DNA from: an uncultured Thermoplasmata archaeon | GTDB taxonomy: Archaea; Thermoplasmatota; Thermoplasmata; UBA10834 | Length of the DNA stretch: 64,000 nucleotides | Direction of reading: 5' to 3' | Assembly (NCBI GenBank): GCA_963719945.1 | Contig: CAVRDX010000001.1 | Coordinates: 512,001 to 576,000, forward strand | Shown: one piece after another, positions 38,935 to 46,784 of the stretch | Numbering within the stretch: the first letter of the stretch is position 1 | How the letters are laid out: every line of letters begins with the position of its first letter | The notes under the pieces: model-generated | Told to the model about the DNA's origin: nothing | The model's input: only the letters and a program-made list of their open reading frames with translations | The model's database searches: none | Program-made: the position numbers and the translations under genes

Positions 38935-39188
38935 TTGATGGTGCTGGCATTCGGTCGATATATGTTCCCTCATTAAAGCCTTTCGTATCGATGAGTGCAT
39001 GTCACGCATCATAAACGAAGGCATGATGCACTATGAGATATCGAGCGGGCCAGTAGTCGCAATGAACATACATGTCTATCATTGTTCTCCGGATATCAGT
39101 AAATAAATACTCATTTGCAATACGGTGTACCCGAAGCACACAGTCGGAGCTAGCTCTGACCGTGGAAGCCAAACAGGGGAATGTTAAA

Positions 39189-40655
39189 ATGATCGGTTTC
39201 CCGAAAGGAAAAATCGCGTTCCGAATGTTCCAGGAGAAGGACCTGGAATCACTTCACTGGGGAACGTTGGACGTGCTCGAGAACGCAGGAATAAAGGTCT
39301 TCAGCGAAGAATGTCTGAAGCTCCTTGAGGATGCAGGGGCCACTGTGGATTACAAGCAGAGCAGTGCCAAGATCCCCGGAAACCTCGTTGAGGAGGCCAT
39401 AACCAAGGCAAAGAAGAACATAACACTCTTTGCAAGGAACCCGAAGAACGATGTGGTACTCGATGGACGAAGAGTCTATTGCTGCACTGATGGAAACGGC
39501 ACTGGTGTTATGGATTTCGAGACCGGAAAGAGACGCATGTCTACGAGCAAGGACCTTGAGATGGTTGGCAAGGTCGCAAATGCTCTCGACTCCGCGCACA
39601 TCTTCTGGCCTTGTGTGAGCAGCCAAGACATACCTGATTATTACAGGCATGTCGTGGATCTCAAAGTCGCATTAATGAGCATCGAGAAGCATGTTCAGGT
39701 AGAGACGACCAGCCACCGCAGAGAAGCACAATGGCTCGTCAAACTCGGTTCCGCGCTCGCAGGTGGCGAGAAGGAATTGAGAAGGAGGCCAATATTCTCA
39801 TCCATGCACTGCCCGTTCTCCCCGCTCCAGCTTGACGGAGGTTCGACTGAAGGTGCTCTTGCACTCGCAAGGGCCGGCGTGCCGATATCGTTCTACGGAA
39901 TGCCACAGGCAGGCATCACCGGGCCTGTGACACTCGCAGGATCAATCATTGTGAATAACGCTGAAGTACTAGCTGGCCTAACGATGGCACAGCTCGCAGC
40001 CCCCGGCTCACCGTTCATGTACGGGACGGGCGGAGCAGCATTCGATATGAAGACAATGACTTGGGCAGGCGGCGGACCGGAGAGAGCGCTAATATCCAGT
40101 GGAGCAGGAGAACTAGCTCATTGGTACGGATTCCCGATCCTTTGTGGTGGAATAGTCACCTCCGCGAAGGTACCTGGCCCACAGTCCTGCTATGAGAAGA
40201 TGTCTAGCGGAATGCCACAGTTCTACGCGGGCTGCGACATGATTGCGGGATTGGGTCTCCTTGACGATGTTTCTATGCTCTGCTATGAGCAGATGGTCAT
40301 CGACAACGAAATGGTCAAGATAATGGCTAGACTCGCTCAAGGCGTCATCGTTGACGACGAACACATGGCAATCGACCTGATCAAGAAGGTCGGACCCGGC
40401 GGTAGCTTCCTGCCAGAAAGACACACCATGAACTGGCTTCACAAAGAGCATTTCATGACTGAGATAACTGACAGGAGGACTGGCGAGATATGGGAAGCGG
40501 ATGGCAAGAAGAGTGCCGTCGACCGCGCCAGGGAGAAGGCTGCCAAGATCATGAAGGAGCATGTGGTCCAGCCTGTCGCAGCTGAGGTCTCGAAGCGGTT
40601 CGAAGACATAATCGTAGCCGCGGAGAAGGACATCCGCGAGAATGGACTCAACTGA
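39189..40655 (+). CDS. MttB-superfamily (trimethylamine/quaternary amine) methyltransferase, non-pyrrolysine
   Basis: SPLQLD, GPVTLAG...NAEVLAG, FDMKT, GPE, SAK.PG.QS.YEK, EQMVIDNE, VGPGG.FL..HT; no in-frame TAG. Confidence 0.88.
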   Translation: MIGFPKGKIAFRMFQEKDLESLHWGTLDVLENAGIKVFSEECLKLLEDAGATVDYKQSSAKIPGNLVEEAITKAKKNITLFARNPKNDVVLDGRRVYCCTDGNGTGVMDFETGKRRMSTSKDLEMVGKVANALDSAHIFWPCVSSQDIPDYYRHVVDLKVALMSIEKHVQVETTSHRREAQWLVKLGSALAGGEKELRRRPIFSSMHCPFSPLQLDGGSTEGALALARAGVPISFYGMPQAGITGPVTLAGSIIVNNAEVLAGLTMAQLAAPGSPFMYGTGGAAFDMKTMTWAGGGPERALISSGAGELAHWYGFPILCGGIVTSAKVPGPQSCYEKMSSGMPQFYAGCDMIAGLGLLDDVSMLCYEQMVIDNEMVKIMARLAQGVIVDDEHMAIDLIKKVGPGGSFLPERHTMNWLHKEHFMTEITDRRTGEIWEADGKKSAVDRAREKAAKIMKEHVVQPVAAEVSKRFEDIIVAAEKDIRENGLN

Positions 40656-40754: not shown

Positions 40755-41699
40755 TTGATACCGTTGGAGCTGGTGCGAGAGTTCGAACAGCAGATGCACA
40801 ACCTTCGAATCGGGCACACGTCATTTAGAAGAGCTTCTAGGCTCGAGAAAAAGCTCGGTATCAGACGGCTGCATCTCAAGCTGGAATCGGAGAATTCTTC
40901 AGGGACGCACAAGGACCGTTCCGCCCTTCTATACGCACTCGATGCAAGGAAGAAGGGAAAGAACACCTTGGCCGCAGTGACATGCGGCAACTACGGCGCA
41001 GCGCTCGCCTATGTGTGTTCAAAGCTCGACATGAACTGCCAGGTCTACGTACCATCAGAGTTTGCGTCGAGCAGGAACAAGGACATAGAGGCTTTTGGTG
41101 GCAATGTTGTCATAGCGCAGGGAGACTACGAGGCCGCGCTCAATGCCTGCGTGAAGGACACGACTGCAAACGGATGGTACAACGCCAATCCAGGTGGTCC
41201 TGACAAAGAGCTCGCTGTATACTCATACTCATTCATAGCAAGGGAGATAGCACAGGAACTGGGGAGACAGCCTGATTGGATATCCGTACCATTTGGAAAC
41301 GGGACGCTACTTGCAGGCATTTGGCAAGGGTTCCGCGCAATGAGCATGAAACCCAGAATCCTTGGCTACTCCAACAACAACTCTGCAATCCATGGTCTGG
41401 TTAACAAGTCACGAGTGCCCATCCCAGTGAACGGGTTGACAATAACAGAGGTGAATGAGCCATTGGCAGGCAATTTTCTCCTCGACTACATAGACGGAAT
41501 GAACGCGATACTGGAATCCAATGGGGCAGCTTTCGAGATATCTGACGAAGAGATGTTGAAAGCGTCCAAGCTCATCATGGATCAGGAATCCCTCGATATC
41601 CTACCAGCATCGGCCGGGGCGATCACTGCCATCACAAGATTAGAATCGCGCAACCACACATTCGCTGCCGTCATAACAGGCCGAGGGCACCACGGTTAG
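40755..41699 (+). CDS. Threonine synthase-like fold-type II PLP enzyme
   Basis: LKLESENSSGTHKDR (PLP Lys), TCGNYG, VPFGNG, VITG. Confidence 0.85.
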   Translation: MIPLELVREFEQQMHNLRIGHTSFRRASRLEKKLGIRRLHLKLESENSSGTHKDRSALLYALDARKKGKNTLAAVTCGNYGAALAYVCSKLDMNCQVYVPSEFASSRNKDIEAFGGNVVIAQGDYEAALNACVKDTTANGWYNANPGGPDKELAVYSYSFIAREIAQELGRQPDWISVPFGNGTLLAGIWQGFRAMSMKPRILGYSNNNSAIHGLVNKSRVPIPVNGLTITEVNEPLAGNFLLDYIDGMNAILESNGAAFEISDEEMLKASKLIMDQESLDILPASAGAITAITRLESRNHTFAAVITGRGHHG

Positions 41700-41770
41700 G
41701 CCGTCGACCTATGTACAATTCTGTCCTAGCGAACATACCGTTCAATGGCCAAGTCCGTCCAGACAAGATA

Positions 41771-41778
41771 TTAATATA
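41771..41778 (+). promoter_or_regulatory. Probable TATA box of the ilv operon
   Basis: TTAATATA preceded by a purine-rich BRE-like AGACAAGA, about 30 nt before the leader ATG. Confidence 0.55.
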
Positions 41779-41806
41779 TCGACAATCATCTGCAAACCCG
41801 GTACAA

Positions 41807-41887
41807 ATGTCCGCTGGTCAAGTCAATCTGACGCTTCTTCTTAGGACCCTAGAGGTCATTGTCGACCTGCGGATTGTAGGCCTGTGA
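41807..41887 (+). CDS. Putative ilv leader peptide MSAGQVNLTLLLRTLEVIVDLRIVGL
   Basis: 26-codon uORF; 13 of 26 residues Leu/Val/Ile; lies directly upstream of ilvB. Confidence 0.7.
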   Translation: MSAGQVNLTLLLRTLEVIVDLRIVGL

Positions 41888-41943
41888 TGGGCACACGACC
41901 TGAGAGGTGTTGTGTCCATACGGGCAGGATTTGAGGAGTGTGA
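41834..41943 (+). promoter_or_regulatory. Putative attenuator RNA structure
   Basis: Long hairpin from about 41880 to 41926 (GCCTGT-G-ATGGGCACA...TGTGTCCAT-ACGGGC); CTTCTTA (41837-41843) can pair with TGAGGAG (41932-41938) in the ilvB SD. Confidence 0.55.
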
Positions 41944-41950
41944 TTTAGAG

Positions 41951-43633
41951 ATGAAAGGTGCCAGAGCCGCCGTGAAATTGCTGGAGAAGCAGAATGTCGA
42001 TTTGATGTTTGGCATCCCTGGCGGCGTTCTACTTCCGTTCTACGATGAGCTCGTTGACACGGATATCAGGCACATCCTTGTACGCCATGAACAGTGCTCG
42101 GCACACATGGCTGACGGTTATGCGAGAGTATCCAAGAGACCTGGCGTTTGCGTAGCGACCTCAGGACCAGGAGCCACGAATCTGGTAACTGGCGTAGCCA
42201 CCGCGTTCATGGACTCATCACCTATAATAGCGATAACAGGCCAGGTCGCGACAGGAGTGCTCGGGAACGATGCATTTCAGGAAGCAGACTCTTTCAGCCT
42301 GATGATGCCGATAACGAAGCACAACTTCAGGATAACTGACCCAAAGGACCTCCCTGAATCAATCAACCGGGCGTTCATGATAGCCACGACAGGGAGATAT
42401 GGACCTGTCCACATAGACATACCAACGGACATATTCCAGGCAGAATACAACGAAGAGGACCTCGATGTGAAGGCGAGGGTGCCAAAGCCACGCAGGAACC
42501 TCTCTGGCCTCCTGGACGCGATCAAGCTACTTGAATCAGCGGAGAGGCCCACCATAATGGTGGGTGGAGGAGTCACATGGTCACGTGCGGGGCCGGAGAT
42601 CACCGTGCTCTCCGATATGTTGATGGCGCCTATTGTCACCACATTAATGGCAAAAGGCTCCGTTCCTGATAACCATCCACTTGTCCTGGGCGTATGCGGA
42701 ATGCATGGGAAACAGGTGGCCAACTATGCATTGAACAACTGCGACGTCCTGTTAGCGATTGGAACCAGGTTCAGTGACAGAGTGACCGGCAAACTCAGCG
42801 AGTTCGGGACCAAGACGAAGGTCGTTCACGTCGATATCGACTCGTCAGAGATAGGTAAGAATGTGAAAGGCAGGGTCGGCCTCGTGGGTGATGCGTGGAC
42901 AGTCGTAAACGCCCTCATAGCGGGCCTGCAGAAGCGGAAGAAGAAGGCCACCTGGGTCGAGAGGATAAAGATACTCAAGAAGGAATGCACCTGCGACTAC
43001 AACATCAAATCAAATCCCATCAAACCACAAAAGGTCATATATGAACTGTCGAAGCTATTGCCCGATGATGCCATCGTCACGACCGAGGTGGGCCAGAACC
43101 AGATGTGGGCACTCCACTTCTACGAATGCTATGGCAACCGCATGTTCATCACATCAGGCGGTCTCGGGACCATGGGTTTCGGGTTCCCTGCGGCCATCGG
43201 TGCGAAATTGGCTAGACCAGATAGCGTCGTCGCGGATATTGCAGGCGATGGCAGCCTGCAGATGGTCTCGCATGAGTTCGCGACAGCGGTCGAGAACGAC
43301 ATACCAGTGATCGTGTGCCTGATGAATAACGGATGGCTCGGCAACGTCAAGCAATGGCAGAAGCTGTTTTATGGCTCGAGATACATTGCGACCGAGTTCG
43401 GAAGGAACCCCGATTTCGTCAAGCTCGCAGAGGCCTATGGGGCGGATGCGATAAGGGTGGAGAAGCAGTCCGAGGTCGCAGAAGCCATTCGGAGAGGAGT
43501 GAAATCCCAGATCCCGATATTGCTCGATTTCGTGATAGATCCCGAGGAGGATGTCCTTCCAATGACCCCGCCTGGCAAGGCATCCTCGGAATGCATAAAT
43601 GGAAGATGCATCTGGAAAGGAGGTGGCGATTAG
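41951..43633 (+). CDS. ilvB: Acetolactate synthase large subunit
   Basis: FGIPGG, RHEQ, TSGPGATN, FQEAD, GMHG, SGGLGTMGFG, GDGS..NN. Confidence 0.95.
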   Translation: MKGARAAVKLLEKQNVDLMFGIPGGVLLPFYDELVDTDIRHILVRHEQCSAHMADGYARVSKRPGVCVATSGPGATNLVTGVATAFMDSSPIIAITGQVATGVLGNDAFQEADSFSLMMPITKHNFRITDPKDLPESINRAFMIATTGRYGPVHIDIPTDIFQAEYNEEDLDVKARVPKPRRNLSGLLDAIKLLESAERPTIMVGGGVTWSRAGPEITVLSDMLMAPIVTTLMAKGSVPDNHPLVLGVCGMHGKQVANYALNNCDVLLAIGTRFSDRVTGKLSEFGTKTKVVHVDIDSSEIGKNVKGRVGLVGDAWTVVNALIAGLQKRKKKATWVERIKILKKECTCDYNIKSNPIKPQKVIYELSKLLPDDAIVTTEVGQNQMWALHFYECYGNRMFITSGGLGTMGFGFPAAIGAKLARPDSVVADIAGDGSLQMVSHEFATAVENDIPVIVCLMNNGWLGNVKQWQKLFYGSRYIATEFGRNPDFVKLAEAYGADAIRVEKQSEVAEAIRRGVKSQIPILLDFVIDPEEDVLPMTPPGKASSECINGRCIWKGGGD

Positions 43634-43996
43634 ATGGAAGTTATGATGCTCTTGGTGTACGACCAGCCCGGCGTGATGCAACGTGTGATGGGCGAGTTCA
43701 CCAGAAAGAGGATAAATGTCGAGACCATCGTGGTCGGCAAGTGTGAGATGCCTGAGAGAGCGAGGATAGTTCTCTCCGTTACGGATAAGGAGAAGGCTCA
43801 CGGCGTGCTCGAACATCTGAGAGCGCTCCAGGAAGTCATAGAGGCCGATATCGTCGATTCAGATAGACACGAGGCATATGCCATCCTCCAAGGCAAGGAA
43901 GGGATATGCCGAGTCACAGGTACGGTGGAAGAGGTTGAGGCACTCGTAATGAAGAGCCAACCCAAGAGATACATAGAAGCTATGAATGCAATTTGA
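43634..43996 (+). CDS. ilvN: Acetolactate synthase regulatory subunit (ACT domain, short)
   Basis: DQPGVMQRV..FTRKRINVETI ACT motif; located between ilvB and ilvC. Confidence 0.85.
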   Translation: MEVMMLLVYDQPGVMQRVMGEFTRKRINVETIVVGKCEMPERARIVLSVTDKEKAHGVLEHLRALQEVIEADIVDSDRHEAYAILQGKEGICRVTGTVEEVEALVMKSQPKRYIEAMNAI

Positions 43997-44013
43997 AAAC
44001 GGAGTGGTCTAGA

Positions 44014-44994
44014 ATGGCTAGGATATACTACAACAAGGATGCGAACCTGAACGCGCTCAAGGGCAAGAAGGTCGCAGTGATAGGATACGGAATACAGGGA
44101 AGAGCCCAGTCGCTCAACCTGAGAGACAGCGGAGTGAACGTGGTAGTTGGACTCAAGTTCAGGGACGATTACTGGAAGCAGGCGAAGGCCGATAAGATGG
44201 AAGTCCTGGATATCCCTACAGCGGTAAAGAGTGCCGATATCGTCATGATGCTCATCCCAGACGAGGTCCAGAAGATGGCCTACGATGCAGAGGTAGCGCC
44301 GAACTTGAGACCAGGAATGACTCTCGACTTCGCTCACGGATTCAACATCCACTTCAAACTCATAGTCCCTCCGAAGGACGTCGATGTCATAATGGTCGCT
44401 CCGAAGGGACCTGGTGCCTTGGTCAGAGAAACTTTCGTAGCGGGCAATGGAGTACCCGCACTGATAGCGGTCCATCAGGATGCGAGTGGGAAGGCCAAGA
44501 AGACCGCGCTTGCCATAGCGAAGGGACTCGGAGCGACAACGAAGGGAGTCATCGAAACCACCTTCACCGAGGAGACTGAGACAGACCTGTTCGGAGAGCA
44601 GGTGGACCTATGCGGTGGCGCGAGCGACCTCATAAAGAAATCGTTCGAGGTTCTGGTCGAAGCCGGCTACCAACCAGAGATCGCTTATTTCGAGGTGCTC
44701 CATGAGCTCAAACTCATAATCGATCTTGTCCAGAAGGGCGGTATCGAGGGCATGTGGAAGAACGTCTCCAACACCGCCGAATATGGCGGAAGGACACGTG
44801 GACCAAGGATAATCGATGATCGGGTCAAGAAGAACATGCAGGCCGTCCTCAAGGAGATCCAATCAGGTGCATTTGCCAAGGAATGGGTCAACGAATGCAG
44901 CTCAGGCATGGCCACACTCACCAAGCTCAGGAAAGATGGTGAGAAGGACCAGATCGAAGTCGTCGGCAAATCAATAAGGAAGATGTTCAAGTAG
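44014..44994 (+). CDS. ilvC: Ketol-acid reductoisomerase
   Basis: IGYGIQG, LIPDE, FAHGFNIH, APKGPG, ETDLFGEQ..LCGG, SNTAEYG. Confidence 0.96.
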   Translation: MARIYYNKDANLNALKGKKVAVIGYGIQGRAQSLNLRDSGVNVVVGLKFRDDYWKQAKADKMEVLDIPTAVKSADIVMMLIPDEVQKMAYDAEVAPNLRPGMTLDFAHGFNIHFKLIVPPKDVDVIMVAPKGPGALVRETFVAGNGVPALIAVHQDASGKAKKTALAIAKGLGATTKGVIETTFTEETETDLFGEQVDLCGGASDLIKKSFEVLVEAGYQPEIAYFEVLHELKLIIDLVQKGGIEGMWKNVSNTAEYGGRTRGPRIIDDRVKKNMQAVLKEIQSGAFAKEWVNECSSGMATLTKLRKDGEKDQIEVVGKSIRKMFK

Positions 44995-45046
44995 GCCATC
45001 CGAAAAAGACATACATGATCGATGCCTAATGTGTACATCGTAGTAG

Positions 45047-45838
45047 GTGGAGAAGTTGGAACCCTCTATACCAAACGGGATCCGGCTCGGCCGATTCAGG
45101 ATTGGGGACCGGACTTTCGTCGGAATCGTCGATGGAGACGAAGTTATAGAGACAGACAGGACATCCATGGAAGACGTGGTCAGTCAGGGATTCACGAGGA
45201 AAGCTATCAGTCACCAATTCTCGCGAGTCACTGTCCTCGCACCGTTCCCAAGACCATCGAAGATCATCTGCATCGGCCTCAACTATCGCAGTCATATCGA
45301 GGAGATGAACTGGGAGGTCCCAAAGGTGCCGATAATCTTCACCAAGCCGTCCTCCGCTATAATCGGTCCAGGAGACAATATTTGCATACCGAAGATGTCT
45401 TCAAGGGTCGATTACGAGGGTGAATCCGCCATAATAATCAGCAAGAGGGCTAGACACACCGATGACGGCGGATCCCACATTTTCGGTTACACTTGCATGA
45501 ATGATGTCACCGCCCGAGACCTCCAGAAGATCGACCCTGATTGGACAAGGGCGAAAGGCTTCGACACCTTCGCCCCGATGGGCCCGTTCGTTTCAGGTCG
45601 ATCCCCGAAAAGGATATTGACTAGATTGAACGGAAACGTGGTACAGGACGCGCCTCTATCCGACAGAGTGTTCGGCGACGCGGCCTTGGTCGAATACATA
45701 TCAAAAGTCATGACCCTCGAGCCAGGAGACATCATTGCAACTGGTACACCATCTGGAATCTCCGCCATGAGACCCGGAGATCTGGTCGAGGTGGACCTTG
45801 AAGGCATCGGATGTTTGAAGAACAGGGTAGTCAGTTAG
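45047..45838 (+). CDS. Fumarylacetoacetate hydrolase family protein
   Basis: KIICIGLNY..H, FTKP, DYEGE, NDVTARD, RAKGFDTF, TGTP. Confidence 0.92.
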   Translation: MEKLEPSIPNGIRLGRFRIGDRTFVGIVDGDEVIETDRTSMEDVVSQGFTRKAISHQFSRVTVLAPFPRPSKIICIGLNYRSHIEEMNWEVPKVPIIFTKPSSAIIGPGDNICIPKMSSRVDYEGESAIIISKRARHTDDGGSHIFGYTCMNDVTARDLQKIDPDWTRAKGFDTFAPMGPFVSGRSPKRILTRLNGNVVQDAPLSDRVFGDAALVEYISKVMTLEPGDIIATGTPSGISAMRPGDLVEVDLEGIGCLKNRVVS

Positions 45839-45842
45839 GATA

Positions 45843-46784
45843 ATGAGAGGAGATGAGAACTTGCAGATTCAGCCGACCGAGAAGATCTGGAAGAATGGAG
45901 AGTTGATATCGTGGAAGGATGCGACAGTTCACGTGCTCACGCATTGCCTGCATTACGGAACTGGAGCCTTCGAGGGAATCAGATGTTACAGCACGGACAA
46001 AGGACCTGCGATTTTCAGGCTCAAGGACCATATGTCGAGGCTCCACACATCTGCGAAGACAATCAATATCCAGATACCACACAGCGTTGAAGAACTCTGC
46101 ACCGCGGCTAGAGATCTGGTGAAAGTGAACAATCTTGATTCGTGCTACATAAGGCCTATCACATTTTTCGGTGTCTCCGGCATCGGTGTCAATCCTATAG
46201 GCTATCCGATCGAGACATTCATCATCGCGTTCCCTATGGGATCGTATTTGGGAGATGAAGGCATGAAGAAGGGCATCAGGGTACACACATCGTCATGGCA
46301 CAGGATGCCGGTCGGTTCGGTCCCAGCAACCGCAAAGGTCTGCGGCGACTACCTGAATAGCGCCCTCGCAGTCATGGAAGCTAAGCAGAATGGGTTCGAC
46401 GAAGCTATAATGCTCAACGATCAGCACATGGTCGCAGAGGGTTCTGGTGAGAACATATTCATGGTCAGGAACAATAGGATACTCACCCCCCCGATCAGCA
46501 CCGGCATACTACCTGGTATAACGAGAGAATCGGTCATGACGATCGCAGGAGACCTTGGATATCAGGTTGTCGAACAGAATTTCTCCAGAGGCGAGATGTA
46601 TCTAGCGGATGAGTTGTTCTTCACTGGCACTGCAGCCGAGGTCACACCGATCAGAGAGGTAGACCGAAGGACCGTTGCGAGTGGCTCACCTGGACCTATC
46701 ACCATGGCGCTCCAGGAGAGATTCCTTCAGATTGCCCGAGGCAATGATACCAAGTACTCATCCTGGCTGGACATTGCAAGATGA
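45843..46784 (+). CDS. ilvE: Branched-chain amino acid aminotransferase
   Basis: LHYGTGAFEGIR, YIRP, AKVCG.Y, EGSGEN, LPGITR, GTAAEVTP. Confidence 0.95.
   Translation: MRGDENLQIQPTEKIWKNGELISWKDATVHVLTHCLHYGTGAFEGIRCYSTDKGPAIFRLKDHMSRLHTSAKTINIQIPHSVEELCTAARDLVKVNNLDSCYIRPITFFGVSGIGVNPIGYPIETFIIAFPMGSYLGDEGMKKGIRVHTSSWHRMPVGSVPATAKVCGDYLNSALAVMEAKQNGFDEAIMLNDQHMVAEGSGENIFMVRNNRILTPPISTGILPGITRESVMTIAGDLGYQVVEQNFSRGEMYLADELFFTGTAAEVTPIREVDRRTVASGSPGPITMALQERFLQIARGNDTKYSSWLDIAR

Follow-up and report, generated by a model that had tools for sequence, protein, structure and literature searches.

We examined a stretch of 64,000 nucleotides (nt) of contig CAVRDX010000001.1 (GenBank assembly GCA_963719945.1, positions 512,001 to 576,000), from an uncultured Thermoplasmata archaeon, and refer to this whole stretch as the window. 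Directly 5' of an ilvBNC-ilvE operon, the window carries a short upstream open reading frame (uORF) packed with leucine, isoleucine and valine (LIV) codons, whose stop codon lies within a hairpin. We propose that this element is a leader-peptide sensor for the operon, acting through the position of a ribosome, and from the comparisons described below we put the probability of this reading at about 0.62; on the same comparisons, it is rather likely that the element is a translated regulatory sensor. In form, it is probably an archaeal, leaderless, hairpin-terminated Leu/Ile/Val leader. Its sensing end would be like that of a bacterial leader-peptide attenuator, while the terminator of such attenuators is missing and no conserved duplex sequestering the Shine-Dalgarno (SD) sequence is evident. 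In bacteria, attenuation by leader peptides is textbook knowledge and needs coupled transcription and translation; archaeal amino-acid operons are generally described as being under protein regulators. Reading positions 41500-42100 directly, we located the promoter, the uORF, the hairpin, the SD and the ilvB start, with the following features in the leader.

41762..41777, plus strand: B recognition element (BRE)-like stretch GACAAGAT followed by the TATA box ATTAATAT (TATA at 41770-41777), from the sequence.
41800..41802, plus strand: predicted transcription start site (TSS), placed by the TATA-to-ATG spacing, with a 5' untranslated region of ~6 nt in the window and 0-1 nt in most relatives.
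41807..41887, plus strand: leader ORF MSAGQVNLTLLLRTLEVIVDLRIVGL, 26 codons plus TGA (41885-41887), open in 41/41 leaders, with in-frame indels, stop-codon interchange, T at position 2 and 44% LIV.
41809..41819, plus strand: 5' strand of helix P1 (segment 1, GUCCGCUGGUC), codons 1-5, from RNAalifold and the minimum free energy (MFE) fold of the leader up to P2.
41828..41884, plus strand: Leu/Ile/Val-rich tract, codons 8-26, the presumed stalling zone, from LIV conservation in 28-codon leaders.
41849..41852, plus strand: CUAG, an in-frame rare Leu codon CUA and then G, kept in nearly all leaders.
41864..41874, plus strand: 3' strand of P1 (segment 2, GACCUGCGGAU), Asp-Leu-Arg-Ile codons, from RNAalifold, pair scans and near-invariant third positions.
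41880..41925, plus strand: hairpin P2, with the uORF stop codon at 41885-41887 in its 5' arm (in the consensus, in an internal loop), from folding energy and covariation.
41933..41938, plus strand: ilvB SD, GAGGAG, from the sequence.

The leader is conserved throughout one order. We located ilvB in 34/36 sampled genomes of the window's family and also in a sister family, and an equivalent uORF of 26-30 codons, with its stop 54-68 nt before ilvB, was present 5' of the gene in 30/30 fetched loci; the sister family has a uORF as well (for example, MTRSADKGKIVANQGLLVGVLVVLRIERP). A covariance model of the leader (R1), built from 41 distinct leaders, found exactly one copy in 46/49 genomes of the order, both families included, and every copy whose context was read lies directly 5' of ilvB, while no match was found in 133 genomes from 27 other families of the class. 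A first-pass annotation of this DNA had suggested collecting related ilvB upstream regions and looking for LIV-rich uORFs, and these proved to be conserved in the same 46/49 genomes. When an exact pattern was scanned against 185,579 species genomes, all 28 matches were uncultured Thermoplasmata metagenome-assembled genomes (MAGs; e.g., RBG_13_57_23 and RBG_19FT_COMBO_56_21), and simple motif searches of the window's genome found the leader motif at ilvB only.

The composition of the uORF is strongly skewed toward the end products of the operon. The 26-codon, LIV-rich uORF that the first-pass annotation had placed at 41807-41887 is present as described, with 7 Leu, 4 Val and 2 Ile codons and a CTT-CTT-CTT run at 41834-41842; its 13 LIV residues among 25 non-Met residues compare with a genome background of 23.4% (binomial P ~0.002). 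Across the 41 leaders, LIV residues make up 44% of the reading frame, compared to a background of 23%, and 15% and 6.5% of the other two frames. The uORFs have hardly any Phe (0.1%) or Met (0.2%) and virtually no Trp or Tyr, and the scarcity of Phe and Met means that the product is not a generic hydrophobic peptide. At the nucleotide level, second codon positions are 46% T, against 8% for first and 23% for third positions. Among the 32 leaders of 28 codons, LIV residues occupy positions 13, 17, 21 and 23 without exception and positions 15, 19 and 20 in 28-29 sequences, and at these conserved positions I, L and V replace one another through first-base changes, so that position 13 is found as ATT, CTC, CTT, GTC, GTT or GTG.

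Further comparative signs indicate that the frame is read as codons. Frame 0 is open in 41/41 leaders, frame +1 in 0/41 and frame +2 in 27/41, and all indels within the ORF are 3 or 6 nt long in the alignments. In the window's clade, the ancestral ATG has been lost and a replacement ATG occurs 6 nt downstream, in frame. The terminal triplet varies among TGA, TAA and TAG only, even though it sits inside the internal loop of the hairpin. Judged from these patterns, the uORF is under coding-type and LIV-specific selection, and by comparative signs only it can be recognized as the kind of short ORF, translated from an initiation signal of its own, that characterizes leader-peptide attenuators.

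The initiation signal appears to be the transcript start itself. Counted from the first TATA base, the A of the uORF start codon is 29-31 nt away in 34/40 leaders with a recognizable TATA box (30-31 nt in 33 of them); the exceptions are the window's clade, at 37 nt, and two leaders of family f2, at 33 nt. Archaeal start sites usually lie ~29-31 nt from the first TATA base, and because the ATG sits at this spacing, the uORF start is predicted to be leaderless in most relatives and to have a ~6-nt leader in the window. A TATA-like element, WTTAATAY, preceded by a GCCAAG-like stretch, is conserved across the leaders examined; the first-pass annotation had recognized the TATA box in the window but placed it at 41771-41778, one base off its position at 41770-41777. 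A GGAG-like motif is also retained in the relatives, 11-17 nt 5' of the ilvB start. Taken together, the core of the earlier proposal, a translated LIV-rich leader peptide with near-leaderless promoter placement 5' of an archaeal ilvBNC operon, is strongly supported by comparison, and a second leader at leuA, described below, adds to this support.

We also found that the uORFs favor rare codons. CTA represents 20% of uORF Leu codons vs 7% genome-wide, ATT represents 56% of uORF Ile codons vs 12% genome-wide, and the rare CTT is overused along with ATT. The CUA of the CUAG motif occurs at the same codon in 32/32 leaders, and CUAG is invariant in a 30-leader family alignment, while CTAG occurs across the genome at about one-third of expectation. 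CCTAG is found in both the ilvB and leuA leaders, which have the in-frame CUA-G in common, and tRNA-Leu(UAG) is encoded by just one gene in the window's genome. CUA codons are also a known feature of the leu leader of E. coli. This conserved CUAG may be the key hungry codon or a site for a shared factor. A mini-hairpin around it (GACC-CUAG-GGUC) was considered and rejected, as the alignment shows that it is not conserved across genera. Other third codon positions in the 28-codon leaders are nearly invariant too (GAC in 29/32, CTG in 32/32 and CGG in 27/32), and together with CTA, they indicate an RNA-level constraint overlying the coding constraint.

RNAalifold recovers two elements in the leader, P1, which is a long-range helix within the uORF, and P2. 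The first-pass annotation had described a long hairpin covering the uORF stop codon, and we find it at 41880-41925 with a folding energy of -28.9 kcal/mol (z = -5.3; 0/200 shuffles were equally stable). The hairpin is conserved across the order and covaries: 7/10 pairs change on both sides, and the observed covariation score was reached by no shuffle. A count of pairs over the 41 leaders gave 90% of cells paired, vs 29-45% when the partner is slid. From these data, we conclude that P2 is a real RNA helix. For P1, 87% of cells are paired vs 30-45% when slid, with almost no covariation; since the helix is almost invariant, it is compatible with the data but not proven. Up to the point at which the SD is transcribed, the predicted fold of the window's leader contains both P1 and P2 (-52.7 kcal/mol, z = -3.3). 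A scan of all column pairs showed that UGCGG in the P1 3' strand can also pair with CCGUG at the 5' base of P2, which gives a four-segment layout (1:2, 2:3 and 3:4) resembling that of classical attenuators. This 2:3 helix has 5 bp, two of them wobble, is pairable in 94% of cells, shows no covariation and is weak beside P2. The two partners first proposed for the CCUGC segment, GUAGG and GCAGG, are not conserved in the alignments of relatives; the segment has two other conserved possible partners.

A second leader of this type occurs in the window's genome at the leuACDB operon (contig C1, minus strand, 221191-221132; L031:5133-5192), where a uORF encodes the peptide MAQENKIQLILPLGLLILA. It has its own GGAGG SD on the 5' side; on the 3' side come a hairpin, whose loop contains the stop codon, and a U6 run adjoining the leuA SD. 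In relatives of the family (L032-L061), the leuA uORF is conserved and has the consensus M..KSNGLLILPLGLLILA*, with interchange of TAG, TAA and TGA, in-frame indels and a U4-6 run after the hairpin. The leuA leader is rich in Leu and Ile and almost lacks Val, whereas the ilv leader contains Val, a difference that fits the products of the two operons. By this comparison, the leuA leader would provide independent support for the leader-peptide reading.

More distant relatives show a related arrangement. In family f8 (L113-L120; ilvB 52% identical), a TATA box is followed after 22-24 nt by a leaderless uORF of 23-27 codons, ~40-125 nt upstream of ilvB. The last 12 codons of one f8 example, MKIGSASGTMTLGIIVDLLHFIT, match the f1 consensus ..LGVLVDLRILRP codon for codon (C-terminal halves LG-IIVDLL-HFIT* and LG-VLVDLR-ILRP*, respectively), and the third-base differences are synonymous (CTC/CTA, GGC/GGG, GTA/GTC and TTG/CTG). 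The f8 stop codon lies at the base of a hairpin, beside or overlapping the SD, and in one genus, the SD GAGGG is in the 3' arm of the hairpin. The LIV content of the f8 uORFs is ~30% only. The codon-level match argues for selection on codons or peptide besides RNA, and the nascent peptide may have a role. Going by the f8 uORF, the device may predate the order.

Elsewhere in the window's genome, a LIV leader is absent from the two other genes of the HMGL family (cimA-like or homocitrate-synthase-like). A genome-wide scan for uORFs biased toward other amino acids returned His-, Thr-, Tyr-, Phe- and Met-rich hits. The genes that follow these uORFs are unrelated or unknown, among them MFS transporters, a PolX-like gene and a PAPS reductase, and the hits were treated as noise. 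Separately, a Thr/Ile-rich uORF of 14 codons (MSSTTTITTATITM; C4:152654-152699, minus strand, L062) resembles the E. coli thr leader and lies upstream of a 351-amino-acid protein without a Pfam match.

How the ribosome position would be read out is less clear than how it would be set. The first-pass annotation had proposed that the Leu-codon segment CUUCUUA pairs with UGAGGAG at the ilvB SD and that a ribosome stalled on the Leu codons frees this SD. The pairing exists in the window and is part of the MFE structure computed for the entire leader, but it is at chance level and is not conserved: when RNAduplex energies were compared to 200 shuffles per leader, z was -0.1 for the window and averaged -0.04 over the 41 leaders, and the uORF segment partnering the SD region shifts between species. 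A Leu-codon anti-SD was accordingly rejected as a conserved feature, and it seems improbable as the general output. We then modelled the ribosome as an unpaired footprint stepped codon by codon and took the probability that the SD is unpaired from the partition function. For the window and the three relatives closest to it, the value in free RNA is 0.02-0.06; placing the A-site at codons ~5-15 raises it to 0.5-0.8, and from codon 16 to the stop, the SD is closed again (~0). In other species, the accessibility of the SD in free RNA ranges from 0.1 to 0.9. Averaged over the 41 leaders, the SD is unpaired with a probability of 0.43 in free RNA, 0.58 when the A-site is 16 to 8 codons before the stop and 0.39 when the ribosome terminates; the gain on stalling is 0.22 vs 0.10 in codon-shuffled controls and is above the controls in 28/41 leaders. 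Thus, the release of the SD by a stalled ribosome is a clear modelled switch in the window's clade but only a modest trend across the leaders as a whole.

From these features, we propose the following mechanism. Transcription would start ~23 nt past the TATA box, placing the uORF AUG within ~6 nt of the 5' end, and the uORF would be translated as a leaderless or near-leaderless ORF. The ribosome would thus enter 26-30 codons packed with Leu, Ile and Val codons, including the invariant rare CUA and the overused rare ATT and CTT. When charged Leu-, Ile- or Val-tRNA is scarce, it would stall in the tract (codons ~8-26), while with a good supply it would reach the stop codon within the 5' arm of P2 and so would have to melt P2. 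The position of the ribosome would pick among P1, P2 and the weak pairing of the P1 3' strand with the 5' base of P2, and this choice would set ilvB expression. Our best guess for the output is that ilvB translation initiation is modulated, the SD being more open with a ribosome in the LIV tract; alternatively, transcript elongation or stability might be controlled by a route independent of a U-tract. We infer stalling, raised expression on stalling and the controlled step itself from sequence comparison.

Four other explanations were weighed against this mechanism. One holds that the Leu-codon tract itself pairs with the ilvB SD and that a stalled ribosome frees it, as in translational attenuation of the ermC, mycobacterial Cys-uORF and actinobacterial LEU-element type. 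The strong switch modelled for the window and its three nearest relatives, the presence of the pairing in the full-leader MFE fold and the average trend across 41 leaders are what it would predict, but a duplex no better than shuffles (mean z = -0.04), a partner segment that shifts by species and a free-RNA accessibility of 0.1-0.9 in other species are not, and the strongly conserved P1, CUAG and P2 would have no role; we consider it unlikely. The sensor could instead be the nascent peptide, with an arrest peptide of the form ..LG[VI][LI]VDL[RL]..[P/L]-stop stalling at or near the stop inside P2, as with TnaC, the fungal arginine attenuator peptide (AAP) and SpeFL, possibly in response to free amino acid. 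This would explain why f1 and f8 peptides are alike codon for codon although the RNA motif GACCUGCGG is lost in f8, why non-LIV residues are conserved in f1 (Gly18 in 24/32, Asp22 in 29/32 and Arg24 in 32/32, with Pro as the last codon in 24/32), and why the stop codon is always within a hairpin. However, Asp22 is replaced by Val in family f2, the C-terminal residues vary (GL, SL, RP, HP and SP), a codon sensor would be expected to show LIV enrichment together with I/L/V interchange, and the leuA peptide is unrelated in sequence yet equally Leu-rich, so that an arrest peptide appears quite unlikely.

The remaining two explanations assign no sensing role to the reading of the frame. The element could be a structured cis-regulatory RNA that a protein, a tRNA or a small ligand binds, or a DNA operator in the part of the gene transcribed first, with the open frame incidental. 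The invariant third positions of CTA, GAC, CTG and CGG, the invariance of CUAG despite genome-wide avoidance of CTAG, the covariation of P2 and the CCTAG of both the ilvB and leuA leaders, which could be a common factor site, all fit such an element. An incidental frame is nevertheless not expected to show in-frame-only indels, an in-frame move of the ATG, variation among stop codons only, an AUG at the predicted TSS, T periodicity at second positions or I/L/V interchange, and no Rfam family matches, T-box and known leaders included; we regard this explanation as very doubtful. Finally, the ORF, with its hydrophobic core and its conservation across families, could encode a free-standing small protein co-transcribed with ilvBNC by chance. 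Its LIV-only composition, virtually without Phe, Met, Trp and Tyr, the interruption of the core by Gly, Asp and Arg, the constant joining of the ORF to a structured leader directly 5' of ilvB, the analogous Leu-rich ORF at leuA and the way in which leader composition tracks the operon product make this a most improbable account.

Several observations nonetheless weigh against a ribosome-mediated leader-peptide sensor. All of the relatives compared are uncultured MAGs, and translation was judged by comparative signs alone; the invariance of third positions could reflect an RNA- or DNA-level constraint with no need of translation, and P1 and the alternative 2:3 pairing lie in invariant sequence with almost no covariation. 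On the output side, no conserved anti-SD is apparent, as complementarity between the uORF and the SD equals that of shuffles, and the modelled effect of stalling on the SD is modest, beating the control in just 28 of 41 related, non-independent sequences. Closure of the SD by the 3' arm of P2 while the ribosome is at the stop is not supported, as it does not clearly exceed shuffles (0.52 vs 0.60 for shuffles, 25/41 leaders). As the first-pass annotation had stated for the window, no U-tract follows P2, and sequence and alignments show none in the window or its relatives, so the hairpin and U-run that precede the first gene in classical attenuators are absent at ilvB and no readable output device appears to be visible in the sequence. 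In addition, no cognate leader was found at the trpE and hisG operons of the window's genome. For a LIV-rich ilvB leader of Streptomyces coelicolor, PMC1262725 reports that mutating candidate regulatory codons was without effect, a warning against inferring function from composition alone. As to termination in the window's genome, runs of T5 or longer occur within 60 nt after 33/652 genes and runs of A5 or longer after 34/652 (crude gene calls); with no excess of T runs downstream of genes, the usual archaeal terminator signal gives little guidance, and oligo-T intrinsic terminators do not appear to mark gene ends there.

The closest known case, by analogy, is the IlvL attenuator of Corynebacterium glutamicum, whose ilvBNC operon is preceded by a leaderless leader peptide (MTIIRLVVVTARRLP), according to the account of Morbach et al. 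2000 in PMC11857589. The two systems would have in common an ilvBNC operon, a short Ile/Val/Leu-rich ORF with its start codon at the TSS and no ribosome-binding site (RBS), and alternative hairpins after it; the C. glutamicum element has a terminator hairpin with a U-run and lies ~290 nt upstream of ilvB. In contrast, the archaeal leader has a BRE and TATA box, no U-tract, a stop codon inside the hairpin and ~63 nt to ilvB, and the two show no sequence similarity. The archaeal leader is also like the enterobacterial attenuators (leu, ilvGMEDA, ilvBN, trp, his, thr and pheA) in its short ORF with end-product codons and rare codons, its four-segment layout (possible pairings 1:2, 2:3 and 3:4) and the occurrence of two operons of one pathway, each with its own leader. 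It differs from them in lacking an intrinsic terminator at ilvB, in its predicted leaderless initiation and in matching no leader family of Rfam. In addition, the 2:3 pairing is weak (5 bp, two wobble) beside a P2 of ~-29 kcal/mol, and the stop codon falls within segment 3, not between segments 1 and 2.

Leaderless sensory uORFs with cognate codons are also found in mycobacteria, where polycysteine uORFs act on RBS access (Canestrari et al., bioRxiv 10.1101/834739), and in the actinobacterial LEU element (PMC1262725). The actinobacterial ilvB and leuA leaders treated in PMC1262725 stand with the mycobacterial uORFs as the next-closest cases after IlvL. Those systems control the accessibility of the downstream RBS, not termination, and coordinate several operons via the ribosome (a "ribulon"); they use a defined RBS-sequestering duplex, whereas no conserved SD-sequestering duplex was found in the archaeal leader. 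With TnaC, the fungal AAP and SpeFL, the leader shares a uORF stop in a special context, a frequent Pro before the stop and some peptide conservation, but those peptides show no enrichment of the sensed amino acid's codons, while LIV codon content dominates here. A full-text literature search found no description of leader-peptide attenuation at an archaeal amino-acid operon, in agreement with the remark in the first-pass annotation that this mechanism is not established in archaea; one tool paper says, as a general statement only, that uORFs regulate archaeal genes too (PMC10219788).

The genes 3' of the leader, identified by domain and family matches, agree with the archaeal ilvBNC operon that had been predicted there, and those after ilvB span 43634..46784 (plus strand).

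41951..43633, plus strand: ilvB, biosynthetic acetolactate synthase large subunit, ATG at 41951, from Pfam TPP_enzyme N/M/C and TIGR00118 (728 bits; cut-off, 538 bits).
43634-43996, plus strand: ilvN, ACT-domain, from domain matches.
43993-44994, plus strand: ilvC, from domain matches.
45047-45838, plus strand: FAA-hydrolase family gene, from domain matches.
45843-46784, plus strand: ilvE, from domain matches.

On the same strand, 5' of the ilv promoter, are an MttB-superfamily methyltransferase homologue (39072-40655) and, directly 5' of the promoter, a small pyridoxal phosphate (PLP)-dependent enzyme of the threonine-synthase or dehydratase type (40755-41699), for which NCBIfam gives a model of threonine synthase as the top match, 1 bit below the cut-off. 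A cmscan search of 41400-42200 against Rfam, with E values up to 10, gave four chance-level matches far below gathering scores and no leader, T-box or riboswitch family. An antisense ORF that overlaps the leader and the ilvB start (41818-42015, minus strand, 65 amino acids) is probably spurious, because antisense frames are open in just 10-20/41 relatives.

On balance, we lean toward the view that archaea have true ribosome-mediated amino-acid attenuation, in the form of a two-operon "ribulon" (ilvBNC-ilvE plus leuACDB) in one Thermoplasmata order, with a leaderless ilv leader and a terminator-free output. That output might be access to the SD, termination by a factor or a shielding of the 5' end of the mRNA by the stalled ribosome. 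The leader raises the questions of how a leaderless uORF signals to a downstream SD-led gene and of what stands in for an intrinsic terminator in an archaeon. Model R1 provides a defined RNA motif for the annotation of MAGs and a template for other archaeal biosynthetic operons, and the conserved leader ORFs, each with its specific codons, at two operons of the pathway provide a test case for archaeal ribosomes as metabolic sensors.

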